Shown one piece after another: positions 1-204 of a stretch of 13,636 nucleotides of DNA. Within the stretch, counting starts at the first letter, position 1. Every line of letters begins with the position of its first letter. The notes beneath the pieces are model-generated. The model made no database searches. It was not told where the DNA came from and saw only the letters and a list, made by a program, of their open reading frames with translations. The stretch lies in NCBI RefSeq assembly GCF_003334315.1, contig NZ_QOWR01000080.1. One strand, 5' to 3'. The translations under genes and the position numbers were made by a program. Source of the stretch: Escherichia coli (GTDB taxonomy: Bacteria > Pseudomonadota > Gammaproteobacteria > Enterobacterales > Enterobacteriaceae).

Positions 1-149
1 GGTTGAGAAGCGGTGTAAGTGAACTGCAGTTGCCATGTTTTACGGCAGTGAGAGCAGAGATAGCGCTGATGTCCGGCGGTGCTTTTGCCGTTACGCACCA
101 CCCCGTCAGTAGCTGAACAGGAGGGACAGCTGATAGAAACAGAAGCCAC
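1..149 (-). CDS. insA: IS1 InsA, N-terminal part only (GTG start at 149..147; truncated by window edge)
   Basis: Minus-strand translation from the GTG gives [50 protein letters not shown], a zinc-finger-like N-terminus matching InsA. An in-frame TGA lies immediately upstream of the GTG. Confidence 0.7.
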
Positions 150-204
150 TGGAGCACCTCAAAAACACCATCATACACTAAATCAGTAAGTTGGCATCAT
201 CACC
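1..204 (-). mobile_element. IS1 terminus (partial; element continues beyond window start); terminal inverted repeat ends at ~204
   Basis: Reverse complement of 1-204 reads GGTGATGATGCCAACTTACTGATTTAGTGTATGATGGTG...GTGGCTTCTGTTTCTATCAGCTGTCCC, which I recognise as the IS1 end plus the insA 5' region. Identification is from memory of IS1, not a search. Confidence 0.8.

Follow-up and report, generated by a model that had tools for sequence, protein, structure and literature searches.

An IS1 end at the margin of an Escherichia coli contig marks a probable insertion into a hypothetical gene of a leuX island

The insertion sequence IS1, represented in K-12 by the isoforms IS1A and IS1B, is an element of 768 bp with the genes insA and insB' and a programmed -1 frameshift. 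Its terminal inverted repeat of about 23 bp starts GGTGATG...CCAACTTACTGAT, and the duplication of 8 to 9 bp of target DNA is established IS1 behaviour. A preference of the element for AT-rich targets was reportedly described by Zerbib et al. in 1985. CP4-6, CP4-44, CP4-57 and KpLE2, the last of these at leuX, are tRNA-associated "cryptic prophages" of E. coli. Beyond simple insertion, IS1 makes adjacent deletions without direct repeats (Turlan and Chandler 1995, reviewed in PMC9330008), and it forms fusion promoters when a -10 element in the flanking DNA is suitably spaced, as at blaTEM-1, blaTEM-6 and acrEF (PMC9330008).

Here we consider an IS1 end that opens a stretch of 13,636 nucleotides of E. 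coli DNA (contig NZ_QOWR01000080.1), the whole of which we refer to as the window. The surrounding island shares with the CP4-type islands (CP4-6, CP4-44, CP4-57, and KpLE2 at leuX) the order integrase, restriction genes, GTPase, AlpA-like HTH regulator, DUF932, RadC, YeeU (CbeA), CbtA and DUF4942. It lies next to tRNA-Leu, upstream of nanS-nanM-nanC-fimB-fimE-fimA. It differs from CP4-44 of K-12 in having a 317-aa orphan gene and an inovirus-Gp2-like gene, where K-12 carries antigen 43, and in an added CopG/RelE pair.

The IS1 end and the contig that carries it

An earlier note made from the sequence had taken the first 204 bp of the window for part of an IS1 copy, and alignment, which could have spoken against this, gave IS1. 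On the minus strand, the segment aligns without gaps to positions 1-204 of K-12 IS1A with 203 of 204 bases identical, the sole mismatch, C to A, falling on position 8 of the terminal inverted repeat. This position-8 variant of the left inverted repeat (IRL) is shared with the IS1 copy of the close relative ET76, and IS1 copies with 100% identity to the whole segment occur in thousands of E. coli records. A search with it returned 9,411 matching records, with a match in 4,965 of 5,426 genomes and a median of 10 places per genome. The IS1 homology ends precisely at base 204, which is the tip of the element, i.e., the outermost nucleotide of the IRL (GGTGATGATGCC... on the minus strand); homology with the flank of every other IS1 copy likewise stops at 204. 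The parts of the element within the window are as follows:

1..204, minus strand: left end of IS1 (IS1 positions 204 to 1), aligned to K-12 IS1A
About 182-204, minus strand: IRL, from the alignment to K-12 IS1A
197..170, minus strand: insA promoter, from the promoter scan
149 down to 3, minus strand: first 49 codons of insA, identical to K-12 InsA

Read from window 204 down to 182, the IRL is GGTGATGATGCCAACTTACTGAT, which agrees with that of K-12 IS1A at 22 of 23 positions. The insA start lies 56 nt from the IRL tip, with its promoter upstream inside the IRL; the promoter scan recovered the known inward insA promoter as ATGCCA-16-TATGAT. The 49 insA codons are intact and their translation is identical to residues 1-49 of K-12 InsA. 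The window lacks about three quarters of the element, which lie to its left, and the transposase genes are directed leftward, away from the DUF932 module. The window copy is thus like K-12 IS1 in its inverted repeat, inward promoter, 49 insA codons and AT-rich target, and it differs in detail only, namely at IRL position 8 and in an insertion site that is novel among the matches listed. Direct and inverted repeats of 9-11 nt linking the IS1 part to its flank were judged to be due to chance.

The opposite end of the window also falls in a mobile element:

13563..13636: terminal part of an IS421 copy (IS4 family) that sits in the 3' end of fimA; the matches of relatives stop at 13562, and the annotation gives fimA and IS421

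The window is probably a whole short-read contig bounded by collapsed repeats, with 204 bp of IS1 at one end and 74 bp of IS421 at the other, and a contig break at such repeats explains why it opens inside IS1. At the IS421 end, fimA (13061-13573) is fused to the element to give a FimA protein of 170 aa that ends ...HKR*, and the identical protein is indexed in 1,343 blocks of a public assembly collection. This fimA-IS421 junction is found in 13 complete genomes, O111:H8 strains included, with IS421 present in both orientations at the site.

The leuX island around the insertion

The distance from the IS1 terminus to the DUF932 gene, which had been put at about 290 bp, is 292 bp:

497..1315, plus strand: DUF932 gene, 272 aa, intact, the first of the DUF932-RadC-YeeU-CbtA-DUF4942 module, from the open reading frame list and the RefSeq annotation of 100%-identical DNA

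Here genes for DUF932, RadC, a YeeU-family antitoxin and a CbtA-family toxin follow one another contiguously on the same strand, with tRNA-Leu and an integrase 9-10 kb upstream, as in a CP4-type module. The assignment is based on the RefSeq annotation of DNA 99.9-100% identical to the window; in an NCBIfam scan, the DUF932 protein gave a match to TIGR03299 below threshold only. That IS1 abuts this module, as had been proposed, was confirmed by the RefSeq annotation of identical DNA taken with the IS1 alignment. Among complete genomes, 4% have the window type of the region upstream of DUF932.

The wider order was read from 13C1065T and ET76. It starts with ahr, tRNA-Leu (leuX), the integrase, a phosphorothioate-dependent restriction endonuclease and fragments of a type I restriction gene, and goes on with a WYL-domain protein, a GTPase, a hypothetical gene, an AlpA-like HTH regulator, the inovirus-Gp2-like gene and the 317-aa gene, which is placed between the Gp2-like gene and that for DUF932. 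There follow DUF932, RadC, the YeeU antitoxin, the CbtA toxin, DUF4942, the CopG/RelE pair and an HTH regulator; the order ends with a restriction-gene remnant, an HNH gene, nanS, nanM, nanC, fimB, fimE and fimA. In 13C1065T, about 9.3 kb separate the point corresponding to the IS1 insertion from tRNA-Leu (leuX) and the integrase; its distance to the HNH/nanS side is about 5.7 kb. The element is in the interior of an integrase-bearing leuX island of about 15 kb. The view that it sits at an island edge fails on the same comparison, as the empty site of 13C1065T puts the point inside the 317-aa gene. Our search for an attR copy of the leuX 3' end found none in the window at up to 3 mismatches.

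Some further features of the island's far side were recorded. At about 5618-5767 on the minus strand, a ScoMcrA-like phosphorothioate-dependent restriction endonuclease is represented by a short N-terminal remnant, adjoining an intact HNH (ScoMcrA_N) gene at 5904-6554. An intact version of this endonuclease, of 290 aa, occupies the same place in another genome (L020), and a second intact copy stands beside the island integrase in relatives. The nanS gene (sialate O-acetylesterase, 326 aa; 6562-7542, minus strand) is an intact open reading frame in the window, and is annotated as a truncated pseudogene in the near-identical 13C1065T.

The interrupted gene and the hairpin behind it

Several E. 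coli chromosomes, 13C1065T, RCAD0514, JX21CE33 and 30EVA2 among them, match window 205-1400 with 100% identity and have no IS1 at this place; over 205-13562, the identity to most of these is 99.9%. Comparison with genomes lacking the insertion, which the earlier note had recommended, thus yielded an empty site with an uninterrupted 317-aa gene in 13C1065T and others. In 13C1065T (locus L001), the insertion point at 6000/6001 falls within a coding sequence (5104-6057) annotated as a hypothetical gene of 954 nt for a protein of 317 aa (WP_032161351.1); the IS1 of the window would lie 57 nt before the end of this gene. The features between the element and the DUF932 gene are as follows:

205..261, plus strand: stranded 3' end of the 317-aa gene, consisting of its last 18 codons (ERLIDERVQGIETRLSRG) and TGA, from the empty site of 13C1065T
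246..274, minus strand: promoter-like site TTGAAA-17-GATAAT (10 of 12), native island sequence, from the promoter scan
280..310, plus strand: perfect hairpin or palindrome AATTCTCCCGGTGA-CTA-TCACCGGGAGAATT, from the repeat search and folding
449..477, plus strand: native promoter-like site TTCAGA-17-TATATT upstream of the DUF932 gene, from the promoter scan, with a -10 that is invariant in relatives

The match to the empty-site genomes begins exactly at 205. The presumed 9-bp target site is therefore placed at 205..213 (GAAAGGTTA), and it would be found duplicated at the right inverted repeat (IRR) end if the event was a simple insertion. The GC content is 35% over 205-224 and 36% over 205-496 (35-39% for the target), compared to 54% in the DUF932 gene; an AT-rich target of this kind fits the known preference of IS1.

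The protein coded by the 317-aa gene (WP_032161351.1) had no match in Pfam, NCBIfam, PHROGs or PADLOC. The 292-bp segment 205-496 is present in 217 of the 5,426 complete E. coli genomes, once in each and always at full length, and the 317-aa gene is annotated in every genome with this segment among the matches listed. IS1 joined to base 205 was found in none of the matches listed from the 5,426 complete genomes, where a record with this junction would have headed the listing. The only listed record to cover the IS1 part is MS15046, whose IS1 lies about 1 kb further upstream. The insertion thus appears to be specific to the strain or to a narrow lineage. That lineage is rich in IS1, since the closest relatives have at least 40 IS1-matching places per record.

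The perfect palindrome reported earlier between IS1 and the DUF932 gene is real, though its arms are of 14 nt (280-293 and 297-310) rather than 13; they are 100% complementary and enclose a loop of 3 nt. The hairpin folds with -23.1 kcal/mol (z = -4.95), and none of 200 shuffled sequences folded as well. It occurs once in the window, with none expected by chance, and begins 18 nt past the stop codon of the 317-aa gene. The arms are kept across 7 relatives down to 92% identity, with CTA or TAA as the loop and a single stem mismatch in one relative; no compensatory stem changes were seen across these 7. The palindrome is present in every empty-site relative examined; it is resident sequence of the island and unrelated to IS1.

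Several identities for the palindrome were considered and rejected. A rho-independent terminator was set aside as neither strand has a U tract after the stem and the terminator scan did not flag the site. Rfam gave only a chance microRNA-like match (E = 0.19), which disposes of a known RNA; a repeated operator was rejected on finding the palindrome once in the window and once per relative locus carrying the region. It is a putative 3'-end hairpin of the orphan gene's transcript, which might act as a stabiliser or as a weak bidirectional stop.

Taken together, the alignments make it highly probable that the AT-rich 3' end of a conserved 317-aa gene, in the interior of the leuX island of about 15 kb, received a genuine IS1 by transposition. 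The element has its IRL tip at base 204 and its transposase genes facing away from the DUF932 module. The orphan gene thereby loses its last 18 codons and is cut off from the downstream hairpin. The insertion is probably recent and restricted to a strain or lineage, within a group already rich in IS1.

Rearrangement, selection and expression

Transposition into the 317-aa gene can be accepted and the element may still be the scar of a rearrangement, which could be an adjacent deletion mediated by IS1, an inversion, or an exchange by recombination of two IS1 copies. In that case, the 317-aa gene would not continue on the left of the element, and the event would have separated the integrase arm from the DUF932/toxin-antitoxin arm. 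This is compatible with the main explanation, and the two part ways only over the DNA on the left of IS1. The events that bear on it are those found in the same island of relatives:

MS15046: simple insertion of IS1, oriented as in the window, into the 5' part of the 317-aa gene that is also hit here, with an 8-bp duplication (CCTTTCGG)
ET76 (IS1 at 4240-5007 of locus L004): IS1 in the opposite orientation, replacing 6.6 kb, with no duplication and unlike 9-bp flanks (AAATAAGTA versus CGCATGACG)
OZ249094 (IS1 at 1980-2677 of locus L011): IS1 replacing about 12.3 kb, the whole island interior

The loss in ET76 begins shortly after the restriction gene and runs up to codon 20 or so of the DUF932 gene. 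Such a pattern is characteristic of an adjacent deletion mediated by IS1, or of recombination between IS1 copies (mechanism reviewed in PMC9330008). The match of EC6 to the window breaks at the same point of the DUF932 gene, and EC6 appears to share the ET76 event. IS1 has therefore given rise to either result, a simple insertion or a deletion, at a distance of a few kilobases from the 204/205 junction. ET76 and OZ249094 are alike in resembling IS1-mediated adjacent deletions, whereas the window displays only one side of its IS1.

Two of the three IS1 events in the relatives' island are thus deletions, and as IS1 is documented to make adjacent deletions without direct repeats (PMC9330008), the suggestion of a deletion at this locus is plausible. 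In addition, the fusion protein predicted for a simple insertion had no exact record in a protein look-up. Against this, the window itself lends the rearrangement no support, and MS15046 represents a simple insertion into the very same gene. The look-ups for junctions do not weigh on either side. A left junction, consisting of the orphan-gene end, 0-20 nt and the IS1 IRR tip, was found in neither the metagenome nor the species-representative genome collections; these also contain no copy of the window's own 204/205 junction, so that the empty scans are uninformative as to simple insertion versus deletion. On balance, we regard a rearrangement scar as a serious possibility, with a chance somewhat short of even.

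Both the ET76 and OZ249094 deletions remove the 317-aa gene, and IS1 has struck or eliminated this gene in at least 4 separate lineages. Such recurrence could mean that the orphan gene with its hairpin has a costly or toxic function, whose loss is selected; it may be, for example, an unrecognised defence or regulatory gene. If so, the IS1 hits at its 3' end in the window and in its 5' part in MS15046, together with the deletions in ET76 and OZ249094, would reflect more than AT-richness in an IS1-rich lineage. We consider selection of this kind improbable.

Even less probable, in our estimate, is that outward transcription from IS1, through a hybrid promoter or by read-out, switches on or boosts the DUF932-RadC-YeeU/CbtA module. 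In its favour, the IS1 tip has a -35-like hexamer, TTGGCA, at 191-196, 8 nt from the end, and there is the precedent of the blaTEM-1, blaTEM-6 and acrEF fusion promoters (PMC9330008). However, the -10 candidates in the flank at spacings of 15-18 (TAATAG, AATAGA, ATAGAC and TAGACG) match at only 1-3 of 6 positions, none of them ends in T, and none passed the promoter scan, which reported no plus-strand promoter near the 204/205 junction. The -35 in the IS end is thus not joined by a usable -10 at 16-18 bp in the flank. Further, IS1 is set apart from the DUF932 gene by 292 bp and the hairpin of -23 kcal/mol, and transcription of the transposase genes runs away from the module. The DUF932 gene keeps its Shine-Dalgarno sequence and the conserved promoter-like site, and none of the 292 bp of native sequence upstream of it has been lost. 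The earlier idea that an outward promoter of IS1 influences the module therefore found no footing here.

The promoter scan reported 3 sites in 700 bp as against 1.3 expected, a background in which the site at 246..274 is not significant alone. This putative site points leftward, antisense to the end of the orphan gene, and thus into IS1 in the sense direction of insA, so that transcription might, if anything, run from the flank into the element.

Finally, that the junction is an assembly artefact, with IS1 wrongly attached at the contig end and none at the site, is extremely improbable: both window ends are repeat fragments (IS1 and IS421), the joins to repeats are the weakest in short-read contigs, and the IS1-205 junction occurs in no other genome among the matches listed nor in the metagenome and species-representative collections, but the switch to unique sequence comes exactly at the terminal IRL nucleotide, as a random misjoin almost never does and as is the signature of transposition rather than misassembly, and it comes at an AT-rich target in an IS1-rich lineage, in an island that IS1 has struck several other times.

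With insertion into the 317-aa gene as the preferred reading, expression of the module would likely be unchanged unless it depends on read-through from the orphan gene. If it does rely on such read-through, the effect of IS1 would be polar and not activating.

This is a routine strain-specific insertion, ordinary and already known in kind, and it has little significance beyond annotation. For curators, its value is in recording that the contig ends in collapsed repeats, that IS1 truncates a hypothetical gene in this strain, that the DUF932/CbtA module is whole and still has its native upstream region, and that the palindrome is not a feature of the insertion sequence. More generally, an island hit at least 4 times, twice with multi-kilobase deletions, offers a small example of the well-known role of IS1 in genome reduction.
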